A DNA stretch of 64,000 nucleotides from Microthrixaceae bacterium (GTDB lineage: Bacteria > Actinomycetota > Acidimicrobiia > Acidimicrobiales > DATDAH01): the NCBI GenBank assembly GCA_020637195.1, contig JACJWK010000002.1, forward strand, positions 2,299 to 66,298, given 5' to 3'. Shown here piece by piece: positions 38,329 to 61,802 of this stretch (the first letter of the stretch is position 1; each line of letters opens with the position of its first letter). Below the pieces are notes generated by a model that was not told the origin of the DNA, searched no databases, and worked only from the letters and a program-made list of their open reading frames with translations. Both the position numbers and the translations under genes were made by a program.

Positions 38329-38365
38329 GCGCCCGGGCCCGCCCGCGCCCCGGCGCGGTGCCACC

Positions 38366-38833: not shown

Positions 38834-38857
38834 CGCCGGCGGCACCGACGGGCCGCG

Positions 38858-40441: not shown

Positions 40442-40455
40442 CTGGCCGGTCCCGG

Positions 40456-40683: not shown

Positions 40684-40783
40684 CGGCCGCGATGCTACCG
40701 GCGACCCACACCCGCCACCGGTTCGGCCGGGCCCGACCGGCGGTGCGAGACTCGCCCGACGCGCACGGACGGAGGAAGGCCGG

Positions 40784-41545: not shown

Positions 41546-41547
41546 CC

Positions 41548-42471: not shown

Positions 42472-42568
42472 GCGACGCCACGGCCCGATGAGCCTCGGGC
42501 TCGTGCTCCGTCGGAGCAGCGTGAGCACCCGAGCGCCGACCCGGCCGCGCTCCCTACCCTGGGACGCG

Positions 42569-43567: not shown

Positions 43568-43816
43568 GGACAGGCCCGCCAGCTCCACGAGCTCGCGGAG
43601 CTCGGGCCGCGCCTCCTCGACCATCAAGCGGGCGCCGCGGCGTCGAGCCACCAGCGCCAGCCGGGCCACGACGTCGACCGCGTCGAGGTCGGGTGGGCCG
43701 AAGCCGCGCAGCGTGCGTCGTGCCACCACGCGCCCGTCGGGCGTCACCACCCGCAGGCGGCACCAGGGTCGGGGTGCGGCCACGAGAGAGGGACGGCGCC
43801 CACCGCCGTCGCTCAT
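43454..43816 (-). CDS. small STAS-like (anti-sigma-antagonist-like) protein, tentative
   Basis: ATG 43816, 6 nt after GAGGTG. ...PPDLDAVDVVARLALVARRRGARLMVEEARPELRELVELAGL... resembles small actinobacterial STAS-domain proteins (from memory). The 3' 114 nt run antisense through the end of the sigma gene. Confidence 0.4.
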   Translation of the reverse strand: MSDGGGRRPSLVAAPRPWCRLRVVTPDGRVVARRTLRGFGPPDLDAVDVVARLALVARRRGARLMVEEARPELRELVELAGLSLSVEWRCVEVGGQPELGEHPAGVEQVEEEAHLGDPPA

Positions 43817-43846
43817 CGGTGACACCTCGGGTCCTACGGTGGCCCG

Positions 43847-44575: not shown

Positions 44576-44626
44576 CGACTGGGAAGAGGCCGACCTCGCC
44601 GACTGGCTCGGGTGAGGCAGCGGACA

Positions 44627-44674
44627 CGTTCTGGCTCCCCGATTTCGGTGCCAGGGCACCGAAATCGGAGCCAG
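44627..44674. repeat. palindromic element copy 1 (core GATTTCGGTGCC-AG-GGCACCGAAATC at 44641-44666)
   Basis: Read directly from the sequence. The 26-nt core is identical to 54446-54471. Outer arms CTGGCTCC/GGAGCCAG extend the stem. Confidence 0.9.
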
Positions 44675-44799
44675 TCCGGTGGACGGTGACGGATCGGTCG
44701 GGCCGGTTCCGGCCGACGGCACCGCAGGCGCCGCCGACGAGCAGGGGCTGGCGGTCGGCGTCGTCCTGGGGCCGTGGTTGCGCGCGCCGGTGCCGGTCG

Positions 44800-45474
44800 C
44801 CGGAGGCCGCCGACCGCGCCGGCGTGGCAGCAGTACCGGACGATGTAGGCCTTGCGGACCGTGCCGGTGGTGTTGACCCGGGTGGCGTGGGGCTGGTTGA
44901 CGAGAACACCACGACGTCGCCGGCGCTCGTGGGCACGTCGACCGCGGTGTCGTGGTCACCCCAGCACTCGAAGCCGATCGGCGTGTCGGCGTGGGCGAGG
45001 GGCCGCTGTCGCGGTGGGCGCCGGCGGCATGACCGACACGCAGCCGTTCTCGGGGTGGCGTCGGTGAGCGACACCCAGAAGGTCAGGTACGCCTGGGGCC
45101 TCGATGAACGTGTAGCTGTCCTGGTGCCACAGCACCGGCTCGGCGCCGTGGGGCACCTTGTAGACGGCCTGCTCCCAGTAGAGGCGCACGTCGTCGCCCA
45201 TGAGGTCCCGGCAGACCCCGGCGAGGACCGGGCTGCGGCAGAACGCCTTGGCGGCCCCGGAGCGCAGCACGACGTGCGGCGCGACCACCTGGGTGTCGAG
45301 CCCGGCGACCGAGAGGCGCCCGCCCTCCACCTGCTCGAGCAGCCCGGCGACGAGCTCGACCGCCTCGTCGCACGCCGCCTCGACCGGGGCCAGCTCGTCG
45401 GGGGTGAAGGCGCCCCGCAGCACGAAGAAGCCGTCCCGGTCGAACTGCCGGCGCTGCTCGTCGGTGATCGTCAT
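44800..45474 (-). pseudogene. phytanoyl-CoA dioxygenase (PhyH)-family Fe(II)/2OG oxygenase, multiply frameshifted
   Basis: ATG 45474 (MTITDEQRRQFDRDGFFVLRG...WHQDSYTF). The rest is readable only by hopping between all three frames: YLTFWVSLTDATP / ENGCVSVMP / GAHRDSGP / LAHADTPIGFECWGDHDTAVDVPTSAGDVVVFSS / ...HATRVNTTGTVRKAYIVRY. The 3' end is undefined. Confidence 0.75.
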
Positions 45475-45789
45475 CGGCGCCCGGTCGGGCAGCGCCCACG
45501 TGAACCCGTCGTTCCACCGATGGGGCGCTCGCTCCCGGGCCACGCGGTCACCGTAGCGACCCGGCGGCGGTGCTCATGGGTGCGGATGGTCGGCCTGCCG
45601 ACGGTGACGACCTGAGCACCAGCGCCGCTGGGCGGCGACCCTGGCCAAGGTCATGATGTGGGGGTACGTTGCGCTGACCGGCGTCGATCGTCGAACCTTC
45701 GATCGCCGCACGGCTCGAAGCCCGGTGCTTCCGCGAGGCCCCCGACCCGGGAGGCCCGCTCGTCCGACCTGACGAGAAGGAGGCACGAC

Positions 45790-46164
45790 GTGCCCAGCAT
45801 CGACGACCTGTCCCTGCCCGGCGACCCCGACTTCCCGGCCGAGGCGTTCTCGGTCGGCTGCGACGGCGACCTGGTCGAGCGGCGCTGGCTCGGCGGCGAG
45901 CCGTACTACGTCCACCACATGGACGTGCCGCCGTCCGACATCACGGTGCACCGGGGCATCCCGTGCACGACGCCGATCCGCGCCGTGATCGACATCGCCT
46001 GCGACACCGAGCCCGACCACCTCGACGCCGTCATCGGCGACTGCCTGGGGAGGGGGCTGTTCACCGTCGAGGAGGCCTGGCACCGCCTCGGCCAGCCCGA
46101 CATGGCCCAGCGCCACGGCGCCGAGATCGTCCGCCAGGCCCTCCGTCGGCTCGGCCTCGGTTGA
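45790..46164 (+). CDS. AbiEi-antitoxin-like/DUF559-associated N-terminal domain fragment protein
   Basis: Strong SD AAGGAGG 6 nt before GTG 45790. ...ITVHRGIPCTTPIRAVIDIACDTEPDHLDAVIGDCLGRGLFTVEEAW... resembles the middle of AbiEi-type/DUF559-linked proteins, but only about 124 aa are present. Confidence 0.45.
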   Translation: MPSIDDLSLPGDPDFPAEAFSVGCDGDLVERRWLGGEPYYVHHMDVPPSDITVHRGIPCTTPIRAVIDIACDTEPDHLDAVIGDCLGRGLFTVEEAWHRLGQPDMAQRHGAEIVRQALRRLGLG

Positions 46165-46397
46165 TATTCGAGTGGCTTCCGATGCCGGACGAGGTGTGGT
46201 CGCGGGCCCTCGAGCTGCAGCGCGCCGTCAGCGCACGGGGCCGGCTCCGGTCGGCGCGCCTCCCGGACCTGCTGATCGCCGCGACCGCCGAGCGCCACGG
46301 CGTGACGGTGCTGCACTACGACGCGGACTTCGACCTGCTCGCCGAGGTGTCCGACCTTCGGGCCGAGTGGGTCGTTCCCGCCGGCTCGGTGCCGTGA
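46161..46397 (+). pseudogene. N-terminally truncated PIN-domain VapC toxin remnant
   Basis: ...DEVWSRALELQRAVSARGRLRSARLPDLLIAATAERHGVTVLHYDADFDLLAEV...WVVPAGS is the C-terminal about 60% of a VapC. The N-terminal acidic-residue strand and any VapB partner are missing. Confidence 0.6.
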
Positions 46398-46489
46398 GCA
46401 CCACGAAGGCCGCCGCCGCGATGAGTTCCGCCGCCACCCGCCGTCGCACCCACCGACGCAACCGTCCGCGATGAACGAGGAGCACGACC

Positions 46490-47275
46490 GTGCCGCACCG
46501 TGAGCACGCCCCGGCCGGGGCGCCCTGCTGGACCGACCTCTGGACCTCCGACGTGGCGGGCAGCCGCCGCTTCTACTCCGAGCTGTTCGGGTGGGAGGCC
46601 GCCGAGCCGAGCGAGGAGTTCGGCGGGTACTTCATGTTCCTGCGCGACGGCGTGCCCGTCGCCGGCGGGATGGGGCCGATGGGGGACATGCCCGCCGGCG
46701 ACGTGTGGACGATCTACCTGGCCACGCCGGACATCGCCACCGCGGCCACCACCGCCGAGGGCGCCGGCGCCAGCCTGTTCATGCAGCCCGAGCCCGTCGC
46801 CGACCTCGGCAGCCAGCTGCAGATGGCCGACCCGCAGGGTGCCACCGTCGGCGCCTGGCAGGAGGGCACCTTCCCCGGCTTCACCGTGCTCGACGAGCCC
46901 GGCGCCCCGAGCTGGTGCGAGCTGCACACCCGTGACTTCCAGGGCTCGCTCGAGTTCTACCGCACGGTGTTCGGCTGGGAGACCCAGATGGTCGGCGACA
47001 CCGACGAGTTCCGCTACGCCGTCGTGCTGGCCGAGGCGGGCAGCGAGGAGCAGGTCGGGGGGATCATGGACGCCGGCGCCTGGCTGCCCGAGGGCGTCGA
47101 CGCGGTCTGGTCGATCTACTTCCTGGTGGAGGACGCCCAGGTGGCCGCCGACCGGGTCGTCGAGCTGGGTGGCTCGGTGATCGACCCGCCCGCCGAGACC
47201 CCGTACGGCGTGCTCGCGACGGTCGCCGACCCCGCCGGCGCCGTGTTCAAGCTGCGCACGGCGCCGAATGAGTAA
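46490..47275 (+). CDS. two-domain VOC/glyoxalase-family protein
   Basis: SD GAGGAG 7 nt before GTG 46490. A duplicated module (FYSELFGWE... and FYRTVFGWE...). Ends in the rare stop TAA. Confidence 0.8.
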   Translation: MPHREHAPAGAPCWTDLWTSDVAGSRRFYSELFGWEAAEPSEEFGGYFMFLRDGVPVAGGMGPMGDMPAGDVWTIYLATPDIATAATTAEGAGASLFMQPEPVADLGSQLQMADPQGATVGAWQEGTFPGFTVLDEPGAPSWCELHTRDFQGSLEFYRTVFGWETQMVGDTDEFRYAVVLAEAGSEEQVGGIMDAGAWLPEGVDAVWSIYFLVEDAQVAADRVVELGGSVIDPPAETPYGVLATVADPAGAVFKLRTAPNE

Positions 47276-47285
47276 GGATCTCCCC

Positions 47286-47314
47286 TTGACAGAGTAAGGA
47301 TTAATCCTTACTCT
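47286..47314 (+). promoter_or_regulatory. promoter (TTGACA-17 nt-TACTCT) with embedded 24-bp perfect palindromic operator AGAGTAAGGATT|AATCCTTACTCT
   Basis: Read directly: -35 at 47286-47291, -10 at 47309-47314, palindrome at 47291-47314. GTG 47321 lies 6 nt after the -10, so the TetR mRNA is probably leaderless. Confidence 0.6.
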
Positions 47315-47320
47315 GGCCCC

Positions 47321-48843
<1,523 letters not shown>

Positions 48844-48888
48844 GCGCCCCTCGGGAATCCTCGCCGGCGCCGACCGGTTGGGGCCGGC

Positions 48889-49326
48889 ATGGGATACACG
48901 GATGCCCCCGAGGGCTGGTGGAAGTCGTTCATCACCGAGCGGCGGCCCGCGCCGACCGGCAAGCTCGCCGTGGTGCGGGCGGACGGGAGCCCGCACGTGG
49001 CCCCGGTGTGGGTGGACGTCGACGGCGACGACGTGGTGTTCATGACCGCGGCGGACACCCTGAAGGGCAAGGCGATCCGGCGCGACCCCCGGGTGGCCCT
49101 GTGCTTCGACGACGAGCGGCCGCCGTTCAGCTTCGTGACGATCCGGGGCACGGCCACGACGAGCACCGACCCCGACGAGCTCCTCCACTGGGGCACGCGC
49201 ATCGCCGGGCGGTACATGGGCGCGGAGCAGGCCGAGGCCTACGGGCGGCGCAACGCCGTCCCGCCGGAGATGGTGGTGCGGGTCACCGTCGACCGGGTCG
49301 TCGCCAAGGTGGACGTGGCCGACTGA
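48889..49326 (+). CDS. pyridoxamine 5'-phosphate oxidase-fold (PPOX-class, probably F420-dependent) protein
   Basis: About 145 aa. ...GKLAVVRADGSPHVAPVWVDVDGDDVVFMTAADTLKGKAIRRDPRVALCFDDE... is a typical split-barrel pattern. Confidence 0.7.
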   Translation: MGYTDAPEGWWKSFITERRPAPTGKLAVVRADGSPHVAPVWVDVDGDDVVFMTAADTLKGKAIRRDPRVALCFDDERPPFSFVTIRGTATTSTDPDELLHWGTRIAGRYMGAEQAEAYGRRNAVPPEMVVRVTVDRVVAKVDVAD

Positions 49327-49365
49327 CGCGGCTCGACCCGTCCGCGAGGGGGTAGGAGCGCCACC

Positions 49366-50865
49366 GTGGCCACCGGCACGGTCGAACCGACCGGCGACCT
49401 GCTCGTGCTCGGCTCGGCCCGGGGGAGGATCGCCCTCGCGGCCTCGGTGGCGGCGAGCGCCTCGTCGATGCTCGACGGCACCGTCGTCAACGTCGCGCTG
49501 CCCGCCCTCGGCGACGAGCTCGGCGCCGACGTGGTCGGGCTCCAGTGGGTGATCACCGGCTACCTGCTCACCCTCGCGTCGTTCATCCTCCTCGGCGGCG
49601 CGCTCGGCGACCACCTGGGGCGGCGTCGGGTGTTCGTCGTGGGCGCCGTGTGGTTCGGACTGGCCTCGCTGCTCTGCGGCGTTGCGCCCACCCTGCCGGT
49701 GCTCCTCGTGGCCCGCATCCTCCAGGGGGTCGGCGCCGCGCTGTTGACGCCCACGTCGCTCGCGCTCCTCCAGGCGGGGTTCCGCTCCGGCGACCGCGCG
49801 GCCGCGGTCGGGGCCTGGTCGGGCCTCGGGGGCCTGGCCGGCGCCGTCGGCCCCTTCGTCGGCGGCTGGCTCGTGGACGGCCCCGGCTGGCGCTGGGCGT
49901 TCCTCGTGAACCTCCCGCTGCTCGCCGTGGCCGTCGTGGCGTCACGCGTGTTCCCCGAGAGCCGCGACCCCGACGCCGACCCCCGCTTCGACGTGATGGG
50001 CTCGGCCCTCGCCGTCCTGGCGCTCGCCCCGCTGACGTGGGCGCTGACGCAGGGACCCGAGCGCGGGTGGACCGACCCGCTCGTCCTCGCGGCGGCCGTC
50101 GTCGCGGTGCTCGCCGCCGCAGGCTTCGTCGTGCGCCAGCGGCGGGCGCCGGCCCCGCTGGTCCCCCGCGTCGTGTTCGCCCGCCGCGAGTTCACCGTCC
50201 TCAACGTGGTCACGTTCCTGCTCTACGGCGCGCTCGGCGTGGAGTTCTTCCTCGTGGTCGTGCAGCTCCAGGTCAGCGCCGGCTGGACCGCGCTCTCCGC
50301 CGGCACCGCGTTGCTGCCGGCCACCGTGCTCATGCTCGTGGGCTCGGCCCGCTCCGGGCGACTTGCCGCCCGCATCGGCCCCCGACCCCAGCTCGTCGCC
50401 GGTCCGCTGCTGGTGGCCGCCGGTCTCGTGCTGCTGGCCCGGATCGACGCGGACGCCCGGTGGCTCACCGACGTCGCACCCGGGGCGGTCCTGTTCGGCC
50501 TCGGCCTGGTGACGTTCGTGGCGCCCCTCACCGCCTCGGTGATGGGCAGCGTCGACGAGGCGCTCGTCAGCACCGCGAGCGGTGTGAACAACGCCGTGGC
50601 CCGCACCGGGGGCCTGCTCGCGGTGGCCGTCGTGCCCGGGGTCGCCGGCCTGGCGGTGACCGCCGGCCCCGCCGAGGTCACCGCGGCGTACGTGACCGCG
50701 ATGCACCTCACGGCCGGGCTCGCCGTCGCCGCGGCGGTCGTGAGCGCGGTGGGCCTGCGACGCACCCGGGTGGCGGCCTCGTCCCGTGAGCAGGTGTGCC
50801 CGGTCGACGGCGCGCCGCTCCAGCCCGACCCCCGACGCTGCCCGGCGGCGGCGGCCGCCGATTGA
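49366..50865 (+). CDS. MFS transporter (DHA2/EmrB-like, about 14 TMS)
   Basis: LDGTVVNVALP, GALGDHLGRRRVF (motif A-like), and repeated hydrophobic segments over 499 aa. Confidence 0.85.
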   Translation: MATGTVEPTGDLLVLGSARGRIALAASVAASASSMLDGTVVNVALPALGDELGADVVGLQWVITGYLLTLASFILLGGALGDHLGRRRVFVVGAVWFGLASLLCGVAPTLPVLLVARILQGVGAALLTPTSLALLQAGFRSGDRAAAVGAWSGLGGLAGAVGPFVGGWLVDGPGWRWAFLVNLPLLAVAVVASRVFPESRDPDADPRFDVMGSALAVLALAPLTWALTQGPERGWTDPLVLAAAVVAVLAAAGFVVRQRRAPAPLVPRVVFARREFTVLNVVTFLLYGALGVEFFLVVVQLQVSAGWTALSAGTALLPATVLMLVGSARSGRLAARIGPRPQLVAGPLLVAAGLVLLARIDADARWLTDVAPGAVLFGLGLVTFVAPLTASVMGSVDEALVSTASGVNNAVARTGGLLAVAVVPGVAGLAVTAGPAEVTAAYVTAMHLTAGLAVAAAVVSAVGLRRTRVAASSREQVCPVDGAPLQPDPRRCPAAAAAD

Positions 50866-50887
50866 CCGCGGGCGCCCGGCGGCCCGC

Positions 50888-51328
50888 TCAGGTGCGGCGG
50901 GCGACGAACATCGGGATCCGGCGCTCGGTGGCGTCCTGGTAGGTCTGGTAGTCGGAGTAGGCCGCGACGGCGCGGTCCCACCAGGCGGCCCGCTCGTCGC
51001 CGTCGACCTCCTCGGCCACCGCGTCGATCACCTCGGCGCCGTCCTGCACCGTGACGTGGGGGTCGGCCTTCACGTTGTGGTACCAGCCGGGGTTGGAGGG
51101 GGCGCCGCCGACCGAGGCGATCAGCGCGTACTCGCCCCCGTGCTCGACCCGCATCAGCGGGGTCTTGCGCAGCTTGCCGCTCTTGTGGCCCCGGTTGGTC
51201 ATGACGATGATCGGCAGCCCGGTGTCGGCGAAGGTGTTGGCCCGCTCGCCGCCGGACGCCTCGAACTCCTCGACCTGCTCGCGGACCCAGTCCCAGCTGC
51301 TCGGCTCGTACTCACCTTCGAGGGGCAT
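50888..51328 (-). CDS. deazaflavin (F420H2)-dependent nitroreductase-family protein (Ddn-like)
   Basis: ...IIVMTNRGHKSGKLRKTPLMRVEHGGEYALIASVGGAPSNPGWYHNV... Probable start ATG 51328; the track start 51337 is a TTG. Confidence 0.8.
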   Translation of the reverse strand: MPLEGEYEPSSWDWVREQVEEFEASGGERANTFADTGLPIIVMTNRGHKSGKLRKTPLMRVEHGGEYALIASVGGAPSNPGWYHNVKADPHVTVQDGAEVIDAVAEEVDGDERAAWWDRAVAAYSDYQTYQDATERRIPMFVARRT

Positions 51329-51344
51329 GGCCCGCAAGCTACCC

Positions 51345-52988
51345 CTACTTCCGGGCCAGGCGCTCGGCCACCTCGAGGCGCTTCTCGAGCTGGCGCACCG
51401 TGGCCTCCGAGATCCGTCCCACGCCCGACAGGCGGTTGAGCTCGGCGTTCACCTGCGCGTGGGTCTGGCCGGTGCGGCGCACCAGCACCGCGACGATCTC
51501 GGCGTTGCGCTCGCGGAGCCGACGCTTCTGCTGGCTGCGGGTGCGGGCCGTCGCCGCGTCGTCGTCGCCCAGCGCGGCCCGCGCGTCGGCCAGGAACCGC
51601 CGGTCACCGGCCAGTGGCGGCGGCGGGCCGAGGTCGATCAGGAGGCTGTCGTCGTCGCCGACGTCGAGATCGTCGTCGACGTCGTCGCCGCTCTCGAACG
51701 GAGCGTGCGTCTGGTGCTCGGTGGCCACCGCCGACAGCGCGGCGAACAGCGACATCTGCTCCTCGACGCCCGGGTCGAGGGCGGCCGGGTCGCGCTCGGG
51801 GCGATCGACCGCGCGCTTGGCCAGGCTGTGGCGGCGCTGGTCGGCGATCTGGAACGCCCGGGCCCGCAGGCGCGGGTCGTCGGGGATGAACAGGTACGCC
51901 TTCTGGTCCACGACGCCCGGCGTCCACCGCACGAAGCGCCCGACCGCCTGGCGGAAGAACAGCTCGGTGGTCGTGGTGGTGGCGTACACGCCCACCCGCA
52001 GCCGGGGGATGTCGACGCCCTCGGACACCATGCGCACCGCCACGAGCCAGGGGGCGGTGCCCGCGGCGAACCGGGCGATCGCCGCGGACGCGTCGGGGTC
52101 GTCGGAGGTGACCACCACCGCCGGGCGATCGAAGCGTCGTTGCAGGAGGTCGGCGACGCCCCGGGCGTGGTCCTGGTCGATGGCGATCACGAGGCCGGCG
52201 GCGTCGGGTTGGCGCTCGCGCACGGCGTCGAGCTGGGCCACGGCCTGGCGCAGCACGGTGGGGAGCCACTCACCCTCGAGGGAGAGCGCGGTGCGGAGGC
52301 GCTGGCTGGCGCGCGTCTGGTCGAGCGCGTCGTCGAAGGTGGCCTCGTGGATCGCACCGTCGGGTGCCGTCCACTCCATGTGGCCGCCGGTGCGGGGGAA
52401 GTAGACGGGGCGCACCACCCGGCGGTCGGCCAGGGCCTCGCTGTAGCCGTACTCGAAGTCGGGCACGGCCTCGTCGGCCACGTAGGTGACGAACGGGATC
52501 GCCCGGGTGTCGCTGCGGAACGGCGTGCCCGAGATGCACAGCCGGCGGGGCGCGCGCTCGAAGGCGGCGCGGATCGAGTCGCCCCACGCCCGGTCGTCGC
52601 CGGCGTGGTGGATCTCGTCGAACACCACGAAGGCCCGCTCGGCGAGCCCCGACAGCACCGCGGCGCTGCTCGCCACCTGCTGGTAGGTGGTCACGATGCC
52701 GTGCATGTCCGCCGGCAGGCGCCCGTCGGTGGCCGCCCAGGCCGGGTCGAGGTGGATGCCGAACGGCGCGGCGGCCCGCTCCCACTGGACCTTCAGGTGG
52801 GCGGTGGGCGCCACCACGACGACGCGGCGCTCGGGGTGCTCGGCGAGGACGTGGCGCGCCGCGGTGAGCGCGAAGGTGGTCTTGCCCGCTCCCGGCGTGG
52901 CCACGGTGAGGAAGTCGGCGGCCTCGCTGGCCCGGAACTTCTCGAAGGCCACCTTCTGCCAGGGCCGCAGGCGGATGCGGCGGATCAT
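51345..52988 (-). CDS. SF2 DEAD/DEAH-box (res-subunit-like) helicase with acidic linker and basic helical tail
   Basis: Walker A ATPGAGKT, DEIH box VFDEIHHAG, SGTPFR, VRMVSEGVDIP, FRQAVGRFVR. The C-terminus has DDVDDDLDVGDDD followed by a Lys/Arg-rich helical segment. Confidence 0.85.
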   Translation of the reverse strand: MIRRIRLRPWQKVAFEKFRASEAADFLTVATPGAGKTTFALTAARHVLAEHPERRVVVVAPTAHLKVQWERAAAPFGIHLDPAWAATDGRLPADMHGIVTTYQQVASSAAVLSGLAERAFVVFDEIHHAGDDRAWGDSIRAAFERAPRRLCISGTPFRSDTRAIPFVTYVADEAVPDFEYGYSEALADRRVVRPVYFPRTGGHMEWTAPDGAIHEATFDDALDQTRASQRLRTALSLEGEWLPTVLRQAVAQLDAVRERQPDAAGLVIAIDQDHARGVADLLQRRFDRPAVVVTSDDPDASAAIARFAAGTAPWLVAVRMVSEGVDIPRLRVGVYATTTTTELFFRQAVGRFVRWTPGVVDQKAYLFIPDDPRLRARAFQIADQRRHSLAKRAVDRPERDPAALDPGVEEQMSLFAALSAVATEHQTHAPFESGDDVDDDLDVGDDDSLLIDLGPPPPLAGDRRFLADARAALGDDDAATARTRSQQKRRLRERNAEIVAVLVRRTGQTHAQVNAELNRLSGVGRISEATVRQLEKRLEVAERLARK

Positions 52989-55012
52989 GCGGCGTCGGCG
53001 GCGGGCTCGGTTCCGGCGGGGAGGGCGGGCGGAGCAAGTCGCTCAAGGTAGCGGCGGGTCGGGCCCGATCGGGACATGCCCGAGAGACACCGACCTTCCG
53101 CTCGGCGGGGCTCGGCATGGGTCAGGGGCGTCGCCGGCGGCGAGGGCGTCGGTGAGGCCGCTGGCCCGGGCGACGGGCGGGCGACGGCGGCCCGCACCGC
53201 GTCCTCGGTGCCGAGCACGGTGAGCCGGTGCTGCGCCCTCGTGACCGCGGTGTAGAGCAGCTCGCGGGTCAGCACCGGCGACGGCGGCCGGGGAGGCGCA
53301 CGACGACGTGGCCGAACTGCGAGCCCTGCGCCTTGTGGATGGTGATGGCGTACAGGAGTCGACCGCGGCCAGCCGCGTGGGCCGGACGAGCAGCGGCTCG
53401 CCCCGGCGCTCAGGCACGGCCTGGAGGCGCCCGCCGCCGACGTCGACGACCACCCCGGTGTCGCCGTTGAACACGCCGAGGCGTAGTCGTTCTCGGTCAC
53501 GATCAGCGGCCGGCCCGGGTACCAGGCGCCGGCGCCGTAGCCCGGGATCGTCGAGCGCAGCCAGCGCTCGATCGCCAGCCGCCACCTGGCGGCACCGGCC
53601 GGCCTGCGGCGGTGGGCGCAGAGCACCTGGACCTCGCTCAGGGCGGTGAGCGCACCCGGCGTCACCGGCCGAGGCGGCGGCGCGACCACCGAGCGGGCGG
53701 TGTCGACCGCACCGCACGGCGCGGAGCTCCGGGGCGGTGGTGGGGTCGGCGTCCGCCGACCTCCGCCACGTGACGTCGTCGCCGGCGGTCGCAGGGCGTC
53801 GACCACCGCGTCGGCGTCCCCCGACTCGATCGCGGCGGCGACGGTGGCGATGCCCCCGCCGAAGCGGTGCACGCGGCGCAGCTCGACGATGCCGGGCAGC
53901 GGCGACGCCACGATGTCGCCGAGGACGGCACCCGCCTCGACCGGGCGAGCTGGCGAGGTCGCCGACGAGGACCAGGCGGGCGGTGGGGCGCACCGCGTCG
54001 AGCAGGCGGGCCATGAGCGAGAGCCCGACCATCGAGCACTCGTCGACGATCACCACGTTGTGCGGGAGCTGGTTCGCCCGGTCGTGGCGGAAGCGGCTGC
54101 GGTGGTCGGGCCGCCATCCGAGCAGGCGGTGCAGCGTGGAGGTGGGCGTCGCCAACAGCGCGCCCGGACGGCCTCGCCGGTGTCAGGCGGCGGGCCTCCG
54201 CCTGCACCGCCTCGCCCAGGCGGGCGGCGCCTTGCCCGTCGGCGGCCAGTGCCACCCGGGGTGGTGGCTGACCGAGGGCGGCGGCCTGCTCGTGGAGCAG
54301 CGCCAGCAGGCGCGACCGTCGTGGTCTTGCCGGTGCCGGCCCGCCGGCGACCACCGAGAAGCGGCGCTCGACCGCGGTCGCCGCCGCGACCCGCTGCCGG
54401 TCGTCCTCCCCGCCCGAGATCGGCGTCCACCCTCCAACGGCTCCCGATTTCGGTGCCAGGGCACCGAAATCAGGGCCAGAACGGACGAGGAAGAGGCGGT
54501 CAGGCCGTCAGCCAGCGCAGCAGTGTCGACGGTGGGGCGGCCCGCCGGCGGGCGAGCAGGTCGGCGGTGATGGCCCGCTCGTGGCGCCAGTAGCGGTCGA
54601 GGTACAGGCGCGTGCGGCGAGGCGCAGCGGGCGGTCGTGGGCCCGCCGCCGCCCACCGCGGTGAGCGGGTGGGTGGCCCGCGGCGACCCAGGCGTCGGGG
54701 TCGGGCCAGGCGAGGGCGGCGACGTCGACGGCGACCTCCTCGTCCTCGGGGGCGATGGTGGTCGGCGCGGTGGCCAGGTCGGCGAAGACGTGGCCGGGCG
54801 CACGGCCCGCACGGCGAGCGCCGCGGCGGGCGACCTGTCCGTCGGGGTCCGAGCGCCGCCGGCAGGTCGGTGAGCGCCAGCGACGCGCACGTCGGCGGCG
54901 GCGAGGACGGTGGCGTCGCCCAGGGCCTGCGGAGCCCGGCGCCCACGGTGGGTCGCCGCCCGGCGTGGAGGTCGACGCCGCCGGCCGGCGTCGGCGGGGT
55001 CGCGGCGGTCAC
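52985..55012 (-). pseudogene. recD: RecD (exodeoxyribonuclease V alpha) gene, multiply frameshifted
   Basis: GTG 55012 forms a GTGA overlap with the recB stop. Motifs are scattered over three frames: RLYLDRYW, VVAGGP/GTGKTTTV/RLLALL, TLHRLLG, VVIVDECSMV, LVLVGD, VQVLCAHR, RLGVFNGDTGVV, YAITIHKAQGSQF, LLYTAVTRAQHRL. The 3' end could be 52985 or 53043. Confidence 0.8.
54439..54483. repeat. palindromic element copy 2 (core at 54446-54471), inside recD
   Basis: Identical 26-nt core GATTTCGGTGCC-AG-GGCACCGAAATC. The right outer arm AGGGCCAGAACG mirrors the left arm CGTTCTGGCTCC of copy 1. Confidence 0.9.
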
Positions 55013-58000
55013 AGGGCGCCCCGGTCGAGAGGTCGGAGAGGTCGGTGACGAAGGCCACCGGCGGCTGCCAGGTGAACACCCGGCGGGGCGCCGCCGACCC
55101 GCGGGGTGTCGGGGCCCACCATGCCCCGCAGGAACAGGTACGCCACGCCGCCGAGGTGGCGGCCCGGGTCGTACGCGGGGAGGCGCCACCGCAGGAACCG
55201 GTGCAGGCCACGCGTAGAGCGCCGCCTGCAGCGGTAGTGGGCGTCGGCCATGGCGGCGAGCGCCTCGGGACGGTAGTGGGCGGTCAAGCCGACCTCGCCG
55301 TGGGGCACCAGGTGGTTGGTCTTGTAGTCGACCACCACGTGGCGGGCGTCGCCCCCGGGCCCGTCGGCGAGGCGGGCGACGAGGTCGATCGAGCCGGAGA
55401 GGAAGCCTCGGACCTCGGCGGTGAGCAGCGGGTCGCAGAGGCGCTCGTGGTAGCCGGCCAGCGGGTCGCCGGCGGGCAGGCCCGCGAACACGTCGGCGAC
55501 GGCGGCCATGGTGACGAGCCGGTCGTGGGGCGGTCGCCGCCGGCGAGGGGCAGGTCGAAGGCGAGCTCGTCGAGTCGGTCGTGGCGGGTGAGGTCGCACA
55601 GGCGCGTCGTCCCAGGCCTCGCCCACGGCGTCCGCAGCGCCTGGGCGACGCCCGCGACCAGCGGGCTCGTGGCCCTCGACCAACCGTGGCGCACCGGCCT
55701 CGGTCGCCGCGACCAGCTCGGCGTCGAGGTCGGCGGCGGCGAAGTCGATCTGCTCCGAGCACCTCGTGCACGAGGGTGCCGACGCAGGCGCCGCGGGGAC
55801 GTCGGCGAGCGGTAGGCGCAGGGCCTCGGCGTCGGCGGCGGCGCCCTGACTCGAGCCAGGGCTCGTCGACCGTGGCCGCCTCCTCGCGCTCGGCGTCGGC
55901 GGCCGCCACTGGTGCCCTCGCCGCCCAGGTCACGCCCCAGGTCGACGTCGAGGCGGGGGCCGGTCTCGTGGGCCTCCCGCGTGAGGCCGCTGTAGGACGT
56001 CCGCACCCAGCAGCGGTCGAAGCCGCGATCGAAGCGGGCCACGGACAGGGCCGCCGCGTCGAGCGCCGGAGGGTCGTAGCGCTCGCCCGTCGCCCCCGTG
56101 GCCTCGACGGTGGGCAGCAGCCGGGCGGTGAGCTCGACGGTGATCTCGTCCTCGGTGGGCACGTGGTCGAGGCACCGGGCGACCGCTCCGGTGGCCGGGT
56201 CGGCGGCGAGCAGCACCCGGGCCAGCGGTGAGCGGTCGCTGTCGGAGGCGCTCGCCCACCAGGCGACCACGCGGTGGCGGGCCCGGGTCAGGGCCACGTA
56301 GAGCAGGCGCAGCTCCTCCTGGTCGCGCTCGTCCTCGGCGCGGTCGAGTTGCCAGCGGCGCAGGTCGCCGCCGCCGCCGACGCTGAGCGCCCGGTGGCCG
56401 TCGGTGTCGTGGAAGGTGCACACGTCGTCGTCGTCCTGGCGGCGGGCGTCCCAGAGGCTGGGCAGGAGCACGATCGGGAACTCGAGGCCCTTCGCGCTGT
56501 GGATCGTGTGCACGGCGACCGCGTCGGCATCGGTCTCCAGGCGCCGCCGGGCCGACTCGGCGCCGGACTCGGCGCCCGGCTCGGCGGCCGCGGCGCGCTG
56601 CTCCGCCACCCAGCCCGAGAGCGCGGTCAGCGACGACGGATGGTCGGCCTGGCGGGCGTGCAGCAGCTCGGCCAGGTGGCGCAGGTCGCTCAACAGGCGG
56701 TCGCCGCCGACCGTGCCCAGCAGCCGCTCGCTGAGGCGCGTGCCGGCTTCGACGCGTCGCAGCACGCCGGCCACCGTGTGGGCCCGCGCCGTGGCGGCCC
56801 AGTCGTGCAGGAGGGCGTCGAGCGCCTCCCAGTCGGCCTCGCGGGCGGCTGCCAGGCGCGCGGCGTCCCAGCCCACGAAGGGGCCGATGGCCACCGCGCG
56901 CACCCGGGCGGGGCGGGCCGGCTGCTCCAGCGCGTCGAGCAGCTCGCCCCAGTGGCGGGCGGCGTCGGTGCGCCACACGCTGCCGGCGCCGTGGACGACC
57001 GCGGGCACCCCGACGCCGTGCAGCGCGTCGCGGGACACGGTGGCCTCGTGGTGCGTGCGGGTCAGCACGGCCAGGTCGCCCGGCCCCACCGGTCGGCCGT
57101 CGAGGGTGCTCCCGCTGTTGAGCAGGCGCACGGCCTCGGCCGCGAGGTCCTCGGCGAGGAAGGCCCGCACGGCGCCCTTCGCGGCGACCCGGGTCCTCTT
57201 GGTCAGGGCGAACCGCCCGCTGTCGTTGCGGGCCACCTTGACGAGCAGCGGCGGCCCGGCGGCGGGACCGTCGAGGCCGGGGCCCTCGGCCCCGGGCCGG
57301 GCCTGGACCGGTCGGTGGCGGATGGCTTCGTCGCCGAGCTGGGCACCGGCGAGCACGGCGTCGAGCGCGGTCAGCAGCGGCCGGTCGGCCCGCCAACTCG
57401 TCGACAGGCCGCTCCGGTGGTCGGCGCGCCGGGTGGCGGCGAGGTAGGCGTGCACGTCGCCGCCGCGGAAGGCGTAGATCGCCTGCTTGGGATCGCCGAC
57501 GAGCACGAGCCGGCAGGGCGGCTCCCCGAAGGCCCGCTCGAGGATCCGCCACTGGATGGTGTCGGTGTCCTGGAACTCGTCGACCACCGCCATCGAGAAG
57601 CGGGCCCGCAGGCGCTCGGCCACGATGTCGCCGCGGCGACCCTCGGCCAGGCTGGCGTCGAGGCGGTCGAGCAGGTCGTCGTAGGTGAGGAGCCGACCCT
57701 CGCGCTTCTGGTCGGCGATGCGGGCCCGCACGGCGCGGGCGAAGGCGCGCCGCTGGCGATCGACGGGGTGGTCGTCCACGGGGGCGATGGCGCAGTCGGG
57801 GTGCTCGACCACCGCCCGGGCGATGGCGGCGGCCGTGCCCGGCTCGAAGTGGATCTCGTCGCCGGCCAGGACCCGGCGCACGTAGAGGTCGCGGACGGCG
57901 TCGTCGACGAGGTCCCGCACGTCCTCGACGAGCTCGACGTCGCGCTCGGCGTCGCCGGCCACTCCGAGCCCGGCCAGCACCTGCTGGCAGAAGCCGTGGG

Positions 58001-58373
58001 TGGTGGCGATCGTCGCGGCGTCGAAGTCGGACAGGGCCACCCGCAGGTTGCGCCGGCGGACCGCGCGCTCGTCCTCGGTGCCCCGGCCCAGGTGGGCGAG
58101 CAGGGGGTCGAGGCCGGTCTCCACCGGCGGCGCGCCGGGCGCCAGCGCCTCCGCGGCCTGGGCCAGGCGCTGCCACACCCGCTCGCGCAGCTCGCCGGTG
58201 GCCTTGCGGGTGAACGTGACGACGAGCAGCTCGTCGAGGGGACGCCCCTCGGCGACCTCGGCCACCACGAGGGACGCCACCGCGTGGGTCTTGCCCGTGC
58301 CGGCGCTGGCCTCGAGCACGGTGACGCCCTCGGCCACGGGCGTCGTCGGGTCGAACTCCACCATCGCGGTCAC
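55009..58373 (-). pseudogene. recB: RecB (exodeoxyribonuclease V beta); helicase part intact, C-terminal nuclease part multiply frameshifted
   Basis: GTG 58373 (GTGA overlap with the recC stop). One frame is intact down to about 55925: LEASAGTGKTH, VVDEFQDTD, LVGDPKQAIYAFRG, TIHSAKGLEFP, LLYVALTRAR. The nuclease motifs are readable only by frame hopping: GTLVHEVL, GSIDLV...VVVDYKTN, HYPLQAALYA. The GTG-to-TGA span is 3365 nt, not a multiple of 3. Confidence 0.85.
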
Positions 58374-61300
58374 GACGCCGCCCACCGCCGGTGGGCGTCC
58401 AGCGCCGGCGTCCACACCTCGCGGGCGAGCACGGCGAACCGGGGATCGGTGATCACGTCGTCGAAGGGCCGCACGCCGCCGTACAGGAGCACGTGCTCGG
58501 CGTCGTGGCCCTCGCCGGGGCGGTGGAAGTCGCCGTCCCACTCCCTGGCCGCGGCCGCGCCCGGGTCCTCGTCGCCCTCTCGCTGGCGGGTGAGCCAGGC
58601 GTGGGACGTCTTCGAGGCGAGCGGGACCGGGCCACAGAGGACCTCGTCGCGCAGGGCCACGAGCGCGGCCAGGTGGCCGACGGCCTGCTCGGCGGTGATG
58701 GGTGGGAGCCCGAACCGGCGCGACCTCCCGCCCCAGCGGGCCACCAGCACCGAGGTCAGGCCGCCGTCGGTGGCGGCGCTCGCGGCCAGGTGGCGCACCC
58801 ACGTCGCCAGCTGCCGCTTCGCCGACATCGAGGAGAACGTGACCGGGCGGATGGTGGCGGCTCCGGCGAACACGTCGGCGACGGTGCCCACCAGGTGTCG
58901 GCCGTCGGGGAGCGCCACGTCGACCTCGATCGAACCCGGTCGCCCGTCGGCGACCTCGCGGGCGCTGTCGGCGAGGCGCTCGGCCTTCTGCCGGGCATCG
59001 GCCAGGACCCGCTCGCCGAGCAACCCGGGCGGCAGCTGGCCGCGGGCACGCTCGGCCGCGACCACGACGTCCGGGTCGGCGCCGGCGAGCAGGGCGTCGA
59101 GGAGGCGCCGGCCCACCTGCCACCGGCTCAGGCCGTCGAGCTCGAGCGCGAGGGCGTCGGCGTGGCGGTCGTCGTCGTCGAAGAGGCCGAGCCCGAGCCG
59201 CTGGCGCAGGAAGGCCCGGGCCGGGTGGTCGACGGCGGCCACGAGCGCCGCGAGCTCGATGACGCCCTCGTCCACCACGGGCGGCAGTGGGACGTGGGGG
59301 TCGAGGAAGGGTGCCGGCGGCGCGGGCGGTCGGGCGGCGGCCTCGGCGCCGGCGAGGAGGCGGTCGTCGAAGCTCCACGGGCCGTCGGTGCCGAGCGCGC
59401 CCGGCTCGAAGCTGCGTCGGTCCGCGGGCTGCAGCGGATGGTGGCGGACGACCTGGTGGCGGGCCAGGCGGCCGTCGGCGGTGACGGCGGTGTCGTCGAG
59501 CACGTCGAGCAGCTCGTTGACCGGCACCGCCGGCGGCAGGGGCTCGTTGGTGCGCGGGTCGTGCCCGTCGTAGGTGACGACGAGGTGGTCGCCGGCGGCG
59601 AGGACGGCGTCGAGCAGCAGCTGGCGGTCCTCGGCGCGGCGGTCGTGGTCGCCGGGGTGGCGGGCGGCCACGAGCAGGTCGTCGCCGTCGGGTGCGCCGC
59701 CGCGGGGGAAGGCACCGTCGTCGAGGCCGACGAGGCACACGACCCGGTGGGGCACCGAGCGCATCGGCACGAGGGTGCACATGGTCATCTCGCCCGTGCG
59801 GAAGGCGGCGCGGCTGGGGCGACCCTTCAGGCGGTCGGCCAGCAGGTCCCGGAGCTCGGCCAGGCGCAGCGGCGTGGCGCGGGAGCCGTCACCGTCGTCG
59901 CCGCCGGCCTCCTGGACGACCTCGGCGAGGAGCTGGTCGAGCTGGCTGCGCTGCCACGCGTCCTCCCAGCGGGTGTCCAGGAGCTGGTCGGCGGCGGCGT
60001 CCAGCGCGTGGACCCAGGCGGCGACGGGCCGGGGGTCGCGAAGCGAGCGCACCGCGCCGCCGAGGCGGCCGACGAGCTCGGCGAAGCGGCCGGCCAGGTC
60101 GATGTCGCCCGAGTCGACGTCGTCGAGGGGGAGCACGCCGCCCACGAGGCGCAGCTCGTCCTCGGACATGGCCACGCCCAGGAGCACCCGCCGCAGCCCG
60201 GCGGCCCAGGTGCCGGTGTCGACCGCCGCGAGGTCGTAGGGGGCGCGGTGGTCGCCGTCGAGGCCCCAGCGGGTGCCGGTCTGGTCGACCCAGCGGGCCA
60301 GGCGCTCGAGGTCGTCCTCGTCGAAGCCGAAGCGCTGGCGCACCGGGGGCAGGGCGGCGAACGCGAGCACCTGGGTGGCGGTGAGGCGGGCGTCGACCAG
60401 CGCGAGCAGCTCGGCCACGGCGCCGAGGACCGGGTTGGTCTGGCGGAGCGAGCGGTCGGCCAGCCGGTGGGGGATGGCGCGGGGGTGGTCGGGCTCGTCG
60501 TCGAAGGCCGCCCGGAGGAGCGGTGCCAGGTCGTCGATGTCCGGGCACATGACCACCACGTCGCGCGGCTCGAGGGTGGGGTCGTCGGCGAGGAGGTGGG
60601 TGATCGCGTCGCGGAGCACCTCGGCCTGGCGGGCCCGTCCGTGGCAGGCGTGCACCTGGACCGACCGGTCACCGGGGTCGAGCCGTGCCCGGTCGTCCGG
60701 GTCGGTGGGGGGCGGCTCGTCGGCCCGGATGGCGGCCTGGAGGCGGCGCAGCAGGGTGGGCCTCGCCGGGTCGTCGTCGGGGAGCGGGTGGTGGCGGTCC
60801 TCGGTGGTGGCGTGCGGCGCCACGGCCAGCCGGCGCCGCAGGACGACGCCCATCTCGTGGCTGTCGCGCCCCCAGGCCCGCAGCAGGGGGTGGCGCAGCG
60901 CGACCTGGTCGCCGGTGCCCCAGCTCGCCGGCGACGGGTGCAGGGCCAGCACGTGGACGTCGCGGTGCGCCGCGAGCGCCTCGAGCACGTCGAGGTAGCT
61001 GGCGGGCAGTCGGGTGAGCCCGAACAGGAACAGGCGCTCGGGGAGGTCGCCGGCGAGGTCGCGGTCGGCGGCCAGCGCCGCGCAGCCGGCGGCGGTGCGC
61101 TCGGCCGGGCTGGGCTGGTCGACCGCGGCCCGGAGGCGCCGCCACAGCTCGGCCTGCCAGGCCACGTGGGGGTCGAGCGCCTGTCCGTCGCCGTCTTCGT
61201 CCCTGCCCTGGTGCCAGGCCCGGACCATGGCCGGTCGGTGCACGGCGTAGCGGTCGTAGAGGTCGGCGAGGTGGCGGACCGCGGCGAAGCGGCGGTCCCG

Positions 61301-61705
61301 GCGGGCCAGGTCGTCCTCGGCGCCGGCGCCGGCGCCGAGGTGGCCGGCGAGGACGAAGAGCCAGTCCTCGTCGAGGCAGGCGTCGACCACGTCGAGCAGC
61401 GGCCAGGCCAGGCGCTCGGGGCGCCACGGGTCGGTGTCGGGGTCGACGCCGGTGACCGTGGCGAGGGCGGACTGCACGAGGCGGCCGGGGAAGGGGAACT
61501 CCAGGTTCGCGCACACGCCGTCGGCCCGGCCGGGGCTGGTGCCCAGGTGGGCGGACAGGCGGTGGGCCAGCCACCGCTCGACGCCCCGGGAGTGGACGGC
61601 GACGACCTCGCGGGTGAACGGGTCGGCCGGCGGGACGGCCAGCTCGGCGGCCAGGACCTCGGCGAGCACATCGGCGCGCTCCGCTCGGTGGAGGACGAGG
61701 GTCAT
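58370..61705 (-). CDS. recC: RecC (exodeoxyribonuclease V gamma)
   Basis: Uninterrupted 1111 codons from ATG 61705 (MTLVLHRAERADVLAEVLAAEL...FTREVVAVHSRGVERWL). It is first in a recC-recB-recD order, as in other actinobacteria. Confidence 0.85.
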   Translation of the reverse strand: MTLVLHRAERADVLAEVLAAELAVPPADPFTREVVAVHSRGVERWLAHRLSAHLGTSPGRADGVCANLEFPFPGRLVQSALATVTGVDPDTDPWRPERLAWPLLDVVDACLDEDWLFVLAGHLGAGAGAEDDLARRDRRFAAVRHLADLYDRYAVHRPAMVRAWHQGRDEDGDGQALDPHVAWQAELWRRLRAAVDQPSPAERTAAGCAALAADRDLAGDLPERLFLFGLTRLPASYLDVLEALAAHRDVHVLALHPSPASWGTGDQVALRHPLLRAWGRDSHEMGVVLRRRLAVAPHATTEDRHHPLPDDDPARPTLLRRLQAAIRADEPPPTDPDDRARLDPGDRSVQVHACHGRARQAEVLRDAITHLLADDPTLEPRDVVVMCPDIDDLAPLLRAAFDDEPDHPRAIPHRLADRSLRQTNPVLGAVAELLALVDARLTATQVLAFAALPPVRQRFGFDEDDLERLARWVDQTGTRWGLDGDHRAPYDLAAVDTGTWAAGLRRVLLGVAMSEDELRLVGGVLPLDDVDSGDIDLAGRFAELVGRLGGAVRSLRDPRPVAAWVHALDAAADQLLDTRWEDAWQRSQLDQLLAEVVQEAGGDDGDGSRATPLRLAELRDLLADRLKGRPSRAAFRTGEMTMCTLVPMRSVPHRVVCLVGLDDGAFPRGGAPDGDDLLVAARHPGDHDRRAEDRQLLLDAVLAAGDHLVVTYDGHDPRTNEPLPPAVPVNELLDVLDDTAVTADGRLARHQVVRHHPLQPADRRSFEPGALGTDGPWSFDDRLLAGAEAAARPPAPPAPFLDPHVPLPPVVDEGVIELAALVAAVDHPARAFLRQRLGLGLFDDDDRHADALALELDGLSRWQVGRRLLDALLAGADPDVVVAAERARGQLPPGLLGERVLADARQKAERLADSAREVADGRPGSIEVDVALPDGRHLVGTVADVFAGAATIRPVTFSSMSAKRQLATWVRHLAASAATDGGLTSVLVARWGGRSRRFGLPPITAEQAVGHLAALVALRDEVLCGPVPLASKTSHAWLTRQREGDEDPGAAAAREWDGDFHRPGEGHDAEHVLLYGGVRPFDDVITDPRFAVLAREVWTPALDAHRRWAAS

Positions 61706-61802
61706 CCTCCGGTCACCGGGCCAGGGGTCGCGACGGGCATCACCGGGGACGGTACGCCACCGCCGTGACGCCCATGACGTGGCGGGGAGGTAGAACGTCG
61801 GC

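Follow-up and report, generated by a model that had tools for sequence, protein, structure and literature searches.

Two indel-rich tracts, one across the 3' end of recB and recD, are very probably poor consensus patches of an actinobacterial assembly

In the 64,000-nucleotide stretch analysed here (the window), the 3' end of recB and the whole of recD are broken by small insertions and deletions (indels), and a smaller twin of this tract lies at 44424-45116. Judged from comparison with other assemblies, both tracts are very probably poor consensus patches of the assembly and not the DNA of the organism, and the lesions within them are almost certainly not biological. The locus itself consists of an ordinary recC-recB-recD operon of the actinobacterial (Acidimicrobiales) type, with a DEAD/ResIII helicase gene downstream. 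Two observations argue for an artefact: L082, a public Acidimicrobiales MAG contig from another sample (NCBI GCA_020439545.1), which aligns to window positions 58959-54446, carries an intact, near-identical allele, and nearly all its differences from the window are small indels, which set in at a sharp boundary at 55927.

An ordinary recC-recB-recD locus with scrambled frames

The features are listed below. L083 is an 87%-identical relative, P0001 is an intact RecB of 1127 aa, and L081 and L145 are near-identical contigs.

58370-61705, minus strand: recC, intact, no frameshift; aligned to L083 RecC
55928-58373, minus strand: 5' part of recB (codons 1-815), UvrD-type helicase, intact; compared with P0001 and L082
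55009-55927, minus strand: 3' part of recB, PD-(D/E)XK nuclease domain, broken; compared with L082
53122-55012, minus strand: recD, broken; frameshift-aware alignment to L083 RecD
52989-53121, minus strand: recD-helicase intergenic region, with blocks conserved in L083
51345-52988, minus strand: DEAD/ResIII-type helicase, intact; compared with L081 and L083
53172-55927, no strand: indel-saturated tract 2, which may reach left to 52997
54434-54479, no strand: palindrome copy 2 (core 54446-54471), REP-like, in frame in the recD linker, encoding APDFGALAPKSGA
44424-45116, no strand: indel-rich tract 1, with palindrome copy 1 and the 3' half of a PhyH-like gene; compared with L081 and L145

Each intact gene occupies a single minus-strand frame in the GC3 frame plot and the 7-state Viterbi map (recC 58387-61713, 5' part of recB 55910-58386, helicase 51337-52989). 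Window recC is 87% identical to L083 RecC across all 1118 aa, with no frameshift (61705-58373), and its final 590 nt differ from L082 by one substitution; Pfam RecC_N (PF04257) and RecC_C (PF17946) are found both in L083 RecC and in the L082 fragment. The protein from recB codons 1-814 is 100% identical to P0001 (domains PF00580, PF13361 and PF12705), and the DNA of this 5' part has three substitutions and no indel relative to L082. The exact 547-aa product of the helicase gene is encoded on L081, without any indel in the DNA, and its alignment to L083 is likewise free of frameshifts (52988-51351). Gene order and domains are those of a RecBCD operon, with RecC encoded upstream of recB, a RecB in which a UvrD-type SF1A helicase is fused to a C-terminal PD-(D/E)XK nuclease, and a frame-corrected RecD that is an SF1B helicase with RecD_N, Walker A and helicase motifs. 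Among genome contigs, the nearest match to the RecB helicase part is only 47% identical, so the lineage has no close cultured or representative genome there. An Rfam search of 52800-56100 returned one sub-threshold match (nhaA-I, E = 0.19) and none in the intergenic region.

Between 52990 and 55910 the frame map falls into approximately 16 short segments in differing frames. Frameshift-aware alignment of the L083 proteins to the window, from which the frameshift counts are taken, places 12 frameshifts in RecB, all at or below 55907 and within the last 900 nt, and at least 27 frame-shifting indels (26 deletions and 1 insertion) in RecD between 54924 and 53172, for a total of 39 frame-shifting events in 2.76 kb. 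The 3' part of recB has two 3-nt deletions in addition. A sequence-only reading of the window had described a scrambled RecB nuclease domain and recD next to a clean recC, RecB helicase part and downstream helicase, and the frame map and the L083 alignment both bear this out. That reading was right that shifts are many, but its counts of at least 9 in recB and at least 8 in recD were too low. Its individual examples hold: to read the Walker A motif, the frame must be corrected at 54335 and 54313; HYPLQAALYAVALHRF calls for three 1-nt losses (approximately 55234, 55210 and 55207); YAITIHKAQGSQF, noted in a third frame near 53300, sits in a frame island of its own (53356-53285); and recB does span 3365 nt, 19 nt less than the 3384 nt of the intact allele. 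The end it proposed for recD, at 52985, has to be moved, given that homology to L083 puts the TGA stop at 53124-53122 and that 53121-52989 is conserved intergenic sequence.

GC3 remains 0.9-1.0 within each frame segment. Frame-corrected recB keeps GSIDLV..VVDYKTN, HYPLQAALYAVALHRFLRWR and the HYPLQAALYAVALHRF motif, and frame-corrected RecD is identical to the 649-aa L083 RecD (PF21185, PF13604 and PF13538) at 530 of 643 residues (82%), with Walker A GGPGTGKTTT, DECSMV, VGDPRQL and TIHKAQGSQF all present. Once the frames are corrected, no catalytic motif is missing. Identity to L083 is then 82-84% for RecD and RecB, compared to 87-90% for the intact RecC and helicase. The misframed RecB product is on record in no other assembly. 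Programmed frameshifting or recoding was considered and ruled out, as 39 shifts in both directions are incompatible with it. The G+C content of tract 2 does not exceed that of the clean recC and 5' part of recB, so GC-driven loss of coverage alone fails to explain where the tract lies.

Near-identical contigs and the edges of the tracts

Over window positions 58959-55928 (3032 nt), L082 differs by 4 substitutions and no indel. The first difference of the tract falls at 55927, and in the 1482 nt from there to 54446 the window has 25 deletions (12 of 1 nt, 10 of 2 nt and 3 of 3 nt), 2 insertions and approximately 14 true substitutions. Indel events thus outnumber true substitutions by about 2:1, all are of 3 nt or less, and there is no large deletion. 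Within the 3' part of recB the comparison gives 12 deletions and 2 insertions (net -19 nt), together with C>T changes at CCG. L082 itself has an intact recB (1127 aa) and intact first 196 codons of recD, of which the initial 566 nt were compared directly; comparison with the recBCD genes of relatives, which the earlier reading, undecided between real lesions and an artefact, had proposed as a check, therefore comes down on the side of an artefact. L082 is the sole independent assembly of recB that is near-identical, and the lesions do not recur in it. Outside the tracts, L081 and L145, contigs from the same population, have 10 substitutions relative to window positions 45117-52996 and 13 relative to 32488-44423, respectively, both without indels; with the L082 stretch added, the 22.8 kb of flanks differ at 27 positions by substitution and nowhere by an indel (0.12% divergence). 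In comparison with near-identical contigs, indels number 27 in 1482 nt of the tract versus 0 in 22,848 nt of flanks (Fisher p = 1.2e-33). As in consensus error, the differences are mainly small indels, set in abruptly and leave intact open reading frames when reverted. We found no feature to match the right edge at 55927.

The near-identical reference spans the right half of tract 2 (55927-54446), and 54445-53172 was judged from 86-90%-identical relatives. For the 3' two-thirds of recD, the searched collections held no near-identical match: a 427-aa query reached no more than 88-90% identity, and a 171-aa query no more than 93% protein identity, with contigs L150 and L151 just 86-90% identical in DNA. 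Compared to these two contigs, 1-nt deletions near 53480, 53355, 53290 and 53175 are present only in the window. At the left edge, the final frameshift is at 53172, and near-identity to L081 without indels resumes at 52996.

Substitutions at CpG in the L082 comparison are asymmetric, with ten C>T versus one G>A and every C>T in CCG on the gene strand (binomial p = 0.006). Such an asymmetry would follow from a patch built on one or a few reads of a single orientation. Tract 1 is of the same kind: between 45116 and 44614, the window and L081 differ by 7 insertions, 6 deletions and many substitutions, leaving 8 net frameshifts in an open reading frame that is intact in L081.

Could these instead be the marks of recent pseudogenisation, in which the RecB nuclease domain and recD decayed in one strain while sisters such as L082 stayed intact? 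That L082 stems from a different sample and assembly counts against an artefact, as the strains could in principle differ here; among the C>T changes in recB, five alter the amino acid (R>C, R>W and P>L), as relaxed selection would permit, and L081 reveals structural polymorphism in the population just upstream of the helicase. Like genuine pseudogenes under the deletional bias of reductive genomes, the tract combines multiple frameshifts and an excess of deletions with loss of a DNA-repair function. In real gene decay, however, substitutions far exceed indels, deletion sizes range widely, and all functionally linked genes decay. Here, at least 27 indels in 1.5 kb would have to arise while the flanks diverged by 0.12%, with indels outpacing substitutions and halting at a sharp edge, so that neither the spectrum nor the amount of change matches flank divergence. 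Substitutions amount to only about 1%, no deletion exceeds 3 nt, and codon bias is intact. The partner genes recC and the helicase part of recB, which would be equally useless by then, show no relaxed constraint and no lesion (at most 4 substitutions relative to L082), and a second, unrelated gene by the other palindrome copy is equally damaged. We consider genuine decay very unlikely.

A dispersed palindrome and the ends of independent contigs

Both tracts contain a copy of a palindrome of approximately 44 nt, with 21-nt arms and a 2-nt loop; the core of copy 1 is at 44641-44666. Perfect 21-nt arms (CTGGCTCCCGATTTCGGTGCC / GGCACCGAAATCGGGAGCCAG) occur at the same position of recD in L083, L084 and L089, and the window's copy 2 has arms that bear errors of the tract type. 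When compared with L086 and distant RecDs, recD carries the element as an insertion before the Walker A motif. The recD genes of L083, L084 and L089 are intact despite the palindrome, as is the start of recD in L082. The L081 copy lies in the tail of an open frame in which codon bias has faded. Besides the two copies in the window, 55 metagenome stretches contain exact cores, some with two or three per contig. An origin from a sequencing adapter or linker was rejected, given that relatives translate the element in frame and that it also occurs dispersed through unrelated metagenomes. By these comparisons, the palindrome is a native dispersed repeat that is harmless elsewhere.

The sequence-only reading had the tracts bracketing the palindrome copies, and both cores do lie within tracts; damage inflicted by the palindrome on its surroundings is unsupported as biology. 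A survey of the kind that it called for, made on other assemblies, went against such an effect, with 44 copies there at a background frame-switch density of 0-2.0 per kb, compared to 5.0 per kb here.

The corresponding mechanism would be a palindrome-centred hypermutation, in which the 44-nt hairpin is repeatedly cleaved or stalls replication and resection of approximately 1.5 kb to either side is followed by error-prone filling (DinB-type -1 frameshifts, single-strand deamination) that leaves small deletions and C>T changes all around. Were it true, breakage at the palindrome would have destroyed the very RecBCD genes that normally process such breaks, with a smaller zone at copy 1. It would suit the presence of both window palindromes within indel-rich tracts, the predominance of deletions, the strand bias of C>T, and the near symmetry of tract 2 about its palindrome (approximately 1469 nt to the right and 1286-1462 nt to the left), which we treat as coincidence. 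Against it stand the intact recD genes that harbour the element, the intact L081 open reading frame beside another copy, and the 44 copies at background density. Tract 1, moreover, is asymmetric (approximately 230 versus 460 nt), and its insertions are as numerous as its deletions. Two-sided resection would predict that the C>T bias turns into G>A beyond the palindrome, which it does not, although this is a weak test, made on a consensus of three relatives with counts at background level (3 CpG C>T versus 2 G>A). Finally, a mutation density of 2-4% beside flanks diverged by 0.12% is, to our knowledge, far beyond any described repair-associated mutagenesis. We regard hypermutation of this kind as very improbable.

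Of the independent short-read contigs, L145 stops at 44423, L081 at 44614, and L082 at 54446, exactly at the palindrome core. Because such contigs stop at or near both copies, the association with the palindrome is better explained by assembly. We infer that the cause lies in sequencing or assembly, with technology, coverage and failed polishing as candidates. Most likely, a high-quality (short-read or well-covered) assembly of the population broke both at the copies of the dispersed 44-nt palindromic repeat and at a structural polymorphism close by. Uncorrected or very-low-coverage sequence of long-read type, largely from one strand, would then have bridged the gaps, and this bridging sequence would carry the indels of 1-3 nt, mostly deletions, every 50-70 nt or so, along with strand-specific C>T miscalls. 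A foldback chimeric read was rejected, since what makes up the left half of the tract is true 3' sequence of recD rather than an inverted copy of the right half.

A variant of the artefact is that strains differing in structure, for example by an inserted or replaced segment between palindrome and helicase, were collapsed into a consensus that follows a minority path supported by a few conflicting reads. In its favour, L081 diverges completely at 52996 and has 82 nt of unrelated sequence where the end of recD is expected, the relative L086 carries an IS element at the same intergenic position, and no near-identical contig for the 3' two-thirds of recD turned up in collections where the flanks are well represented. 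The 82 nt have no match elsewhere in the window, as a deletion junction would, nor in the L086 IS. Collapse alone fails to account for the right edge, which L082 crosses unbroken, and we think it very unlikely to be the answer. For both tracts, the bridging of assembly gaps by poor consensus remains our preferred explanation.

Relation to known systems and consequences

The tracts resemble frameshift tracts that escaped polishing in long-read or hybrid (meta)genome assemblies, in which small indels dominate, residues are preserved across split frames, and bounds are sharp and located at repeats or contig joins. Here the errors are confined to two patches and the rest is clean (no indel in the 22.8 kb compared), unlike errors spread genome-wide. 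Indel-driven frameshifts are described as a failure mode of inadequately polished long-read (meta)genome assemblies (bioRxiv 10.1101/2021.08.23.457338; PMC9262707).

The locus shares with the RecBCD (exonuclease V) of Actinomycetota, including mycobacteria, the recC-recB-recD order, the RecB composed of a UvrD-type helicase and a PD-(D/E)XK nuclease, and the SF1B RecD with RecD_N; identities are 36-47% in cultured actinobacteria and 83-90% in metagenomes. What sets the present lineage apart is the in-frame palindromic-repeat insertion in the RecD linker before Walker A. With its length of approximately 44 nt and many copies in related metagenome contigs, the palindrome is akin to REP/MITE-like repeats. 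Most described REPs are intergenic, whereas the recD copy is not extragenic but translated in frame within intact recD genes of several relatives.

Genes within 44424-45116 and 53172-55927 should carry a quality flag and should not be called pseudogenes, and such patches will turn up in any genome-wide scan of the assembly that looks for clusters of pseudogenes or for decay linked to the palindrome. Taken at face value, the window would describe an actinobacterium without RecBCD nuclease and RecD, and a mutagenic palindrome, and both would be wrong. The comparisons show instead a population that, by its predicted genes, encodes a normal RecBCD.

Reading frames in recB and recD

The window has a G+C content of approximately 75%, which gives long spurious open reading frames in every frame. 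Coding frames were therefore judged by third-position G+C, using a sliding GC3 plot and a 7-state Viterbi frame map. Nearly the whole window consists of long single-frame segments, those at the recBCD locus among them. Positions 52990-55910 break up into approximately 16 short segments in differing frames (tract 2), and a smaller disturbed zone is seen at approximately 44414-45100 (tract 1).

To map the shifts, 15 distant RecB/RecD homologues (approximately 45% identity) were first aligned by tblastn and by frameshift-aware protein-to-DNA alignment, with consistent shift positions. Final counts come from aligning to the window the proteins of a closer relative, L083, an 82-kb metagenome contig with an intact syntenic recC-recB-recD-helicase cluster (RecB identity 87%).

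Coding segments of the recBCD locus and frameshifts relative to L083 proteins
58387-61713, minus strand: recC, one single-frame segment (GC3/Viterbi)
55910-58386, minus strand: first part of recB, one single-frame segment (GC3/Viterbi)
51337-52989, minus strand: helicase gene, one single-frame segment (GC3/Viterbi)
61705-58373: RecC, 0 frameshifts
At or below 55907: RecB, all 12 frameshifts
54924-53172: RecD, 27 frameshifts
52988-51351: helicase, 0 frameshifts

The frame scrambling proposed in the sequence-only reading is thus borne out by the frameshift-aware alignment to L083, and is denser than estimated there; its three examples (the Walker A motif, HYPLQAALYAVALHRF and YAITIHKAQGSQF) were all recovered. 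After frame correction all catalytic motifs are present; identity to the L083 proteins is then 84% for RecB and 82% for RecD, compared to 87% and 90% for the intact RecC and helicase. The end of recD had been misplaced at 52985: the stop is the TGA at 53124-53122, followed by an intergenic region (53121-52989) conserved with L083. On the minus strand, this region shares well-conserved blocks with L083 15414-15556, an 87% relative: GGTCGGTG[T/C]CTCTCGGG(G)CATGTCCCG ... CCGCTACCTTGAGCGACTTGCTCC. It may serve to regulate the helicase, and it has no match in Rfam.

Comparison with near-identical contigs

Searching proteins with the intact helicase part of RecB brought up P0001. This RecB is full-length (1127 aa), comes from an NCBI Acidimicrobiales metagenome-assembled genome and is 100% identical across the 814 query residues. 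Its 4553-bp contig, L082 (GCA_020439545.1, JAGQSM010000379.1), holds the 3' end of recC, recB in intact form and recD codons 1-196, and aligns to window 58959-54446. From 58959 to 55928 (3032 nt), the two differ by 4 substitutions and no indels. In the remaining 1482 nt of the alignment, from 55927 on, the window has 25 deletion events (12 of 1 nt, 10 of 2 nt and 3 of 3 nt), 2 insertions and approximately 14 genuine substitutions. Ten differences in the tract are C>T; each falls in a CCG (giving CTG) of the gene strand, whereas G>A occurs at CpG only once (binomial p = 0.006). This pattern could be a context-specific miscall or a damage signature of the underlying read(s). The ten lie in 55927-54472, 5 being non-synonymous in recB and 5 synonymous in recD. 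The near-identical reference reaches no further than the right half of tract 2. Over 54445-53172, the best-matching public relatives have 86-90% DNA identity; compared with them, the window alone carries 1-nt deletions in recD, and the helicase next to it has none.

Two further contigs served as population controls. L081 (a short-read scaffold, SAMN08389203) differs from window 45117-52996 by 10 substitutions, and L145 (SAMN08389204) from 32488-44423 by 13, both without indels. Natural variation in the population thus amounts to approximately 0.12% substitutions, most of them G/C exchanges at third positions that form small clusters, and 0 indels in 22.8 kb. Indel events number 27 in 1482 nt of the tract versus 0 in 22,848 nt of flanks (Fisher p = 1.2e-33). 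Tight clusters of G/C exchanges at third codon positions, with spacings that are multiples of 3 nt, occur at 41455-41512, 44316-44389, 46828-46933 and 56505-56529; against an otherwise 99.9% identical background they look like short recombination tracts or microdiversity.

L081 also reaches 500 nt into tract 1 (45116-44614), with 7 insertions, 6 deletions and many substitutions relative to the window. A PhyH-like ORF, uninterrupted in L081, can be read through in the window only after 8 frame corrections. Between the two tracts lies a PIN-domain (VapC-like) gene (46160-46400). The small ORFs beside it find matches in the VapB/VapC region of L083, and the locus is an ordinary toxin-antitoxin pair.

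Could recD and the 3' part of recB be true pseudogenes? We consider this very unlikely. The window strain and those of L082, L081 and L145 are only approximately 0.1% diverged in the flanks, so that neutral decay would yield well under 1 indel per 1.5 kb, not 27, while an imported old pseudogene allele would carry far more substitutions than indels, the reverse of what is seen. The longest indel is 3 nt, and each frame piece keeps its codon bias. Loss of RecD and the nuclease would make recC and the RecB helicase part just as dispensable, yet both are lesion-free. Moreover, matching damage affects an unrelated gene located at the second copy of the palindrome, and the misframed RecB product is unrecorded in any other assembly in the collections searched.

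The palindrome and its genomic distribution

Each tract contains one copy of a palindromic repeat, GATTTCGGTGCCNNGGCACCGAAATC.

Palindrome copies (core GATTTCGGTGCC-NN-GGCACCGAAATC)
54434-54479: copy 2, full extent; core 54446-54471
44629-44679: copy 1, full extent; core 44641-44666
L083 14016-14065: copy in a relative
L089, approximately 6583-6632: copy in a relative
L090-L144: copies in metagenome stretches

Copies in relatives are perfect palindromes of approximately 44 nt with 21-nt arms and a 2-nt loop. Among copies the loop reads CT or, in the opposite orientation, AG; in the relative L084 it is AA. The intact recD genes of L083, L084 and L089 hold the palindrome at one common position, and L082 has it at its very end. 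It is translated in frame as APDFGA(L/R)APKSGA and, in the protein alignment, adds approximately 25 codons to the linker that precedes Walker A, an insertion missing in the relative L086 and in distant RecDs. An exact-match scan of metagenome contigs returned 55 stretches with the palindrome, several with 2-3 copies, which makes it a REP-like repeat dispersed in this actinobacterial lineage.

That the palindrome damages neighbouring DNA, as the sequence-only reading implied, is not borne out across other assemblies. Around the 44 copies with enough context (1.5 kb each side), frame-switch density is 0-2.0 per kb, the background of each locus, compared to 5.0 per kb at copy 2 of the window. Copies free of indel-rich surroundings are the outcome that the sequence-only reading itself had named as making the association coincidental. 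A comparison with the consensus of three relatives, looking for a reversal of the C>T bias across the palindrome, gave 3 CpG C>T and 2 CpG G>A, counts at background level. Tract 2 is nearly symmetric around its palindrome; since tract 1 is asymmetric, we regard this as coincidence. Palindrome-centred hypermutation is extremely unlikely.

Contig breaks and the origin of the tracts

Ends of independent short-read contigs of this population at the tracts
44423: end of L145
44614: end of L081, slightly past palindrome copy 1
54446: end of L082, exactly in the core of palindrome copy 2
52996: other end of L081, switching to 82 nt of unrelated sequence

The window runs across every one of these breaks, and it is the sequence spanning them that is rich in indels. 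L081 is otherwise 99.9% identical to the window across 7.9 kb; its positions 1-82 diverge from window 52997-53078, starting exactly 8 nt upstream of the helicase ATG, and have no match among the sequences compared in this analysis. This suggests either that some of the population carries a structural variant (a recD-side insertion or replacement) or that the contig end is chimeric. The 90%-identical relative L086 has an IS element (7997-9514; DDE_Tnp_1/DUF772 transposase, 505 aa) between recD and the helicase, the intergenic position where L081 departs from the window. No coinciding feature was identified at the right edge of tract 2 (55927), and its G+C is not above that of clean neighbouring genes.

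From these comparisons, the frame lesions very likely represent a local assembly or consensus artefact, and we hold slightly more firmly to an artefact when a collapsed-strain variant, by itself very unlikely, is included. We infer a sequencing or assembly cause, namely contig breaks followed by unpolished bridging. Accurate contigs would have broken at the dispersed repeat and at a structural polymorphism, and the gaps would then have been filled by long-read-type sequence, mostly of one strand, that was uncorrected or had hardly any coverage, or polishing would have failed there. Sharp tract edges, small indels and C>T changes specific to one strand would all follow from such a course, which is the simplest account of why palindromes lie within the tracts. 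Frameshifts from small indels are described as a well-documented weakness of inadequately polished long-read (meta)genome assemblies in bioRxiv 10.1101/2021.08.23.457338 and PMC9262707.

Contigs with 99.5-100% identity to parts of the window come from GCA_020439545.1 and from SPIRE WANG18-1 samples SAMN08389203, SAMN08389204, SAMN08389211 and SAMN08389247. In the species-representative genome collection the best RecB match is 47%, and the source genome appears to be missing from it. The source is an uncultured Acidimicrobiales-type population present in several samples. The tracts are very probably not a real biological feature, and the underlying locus is an ordinary RecBCD operon.
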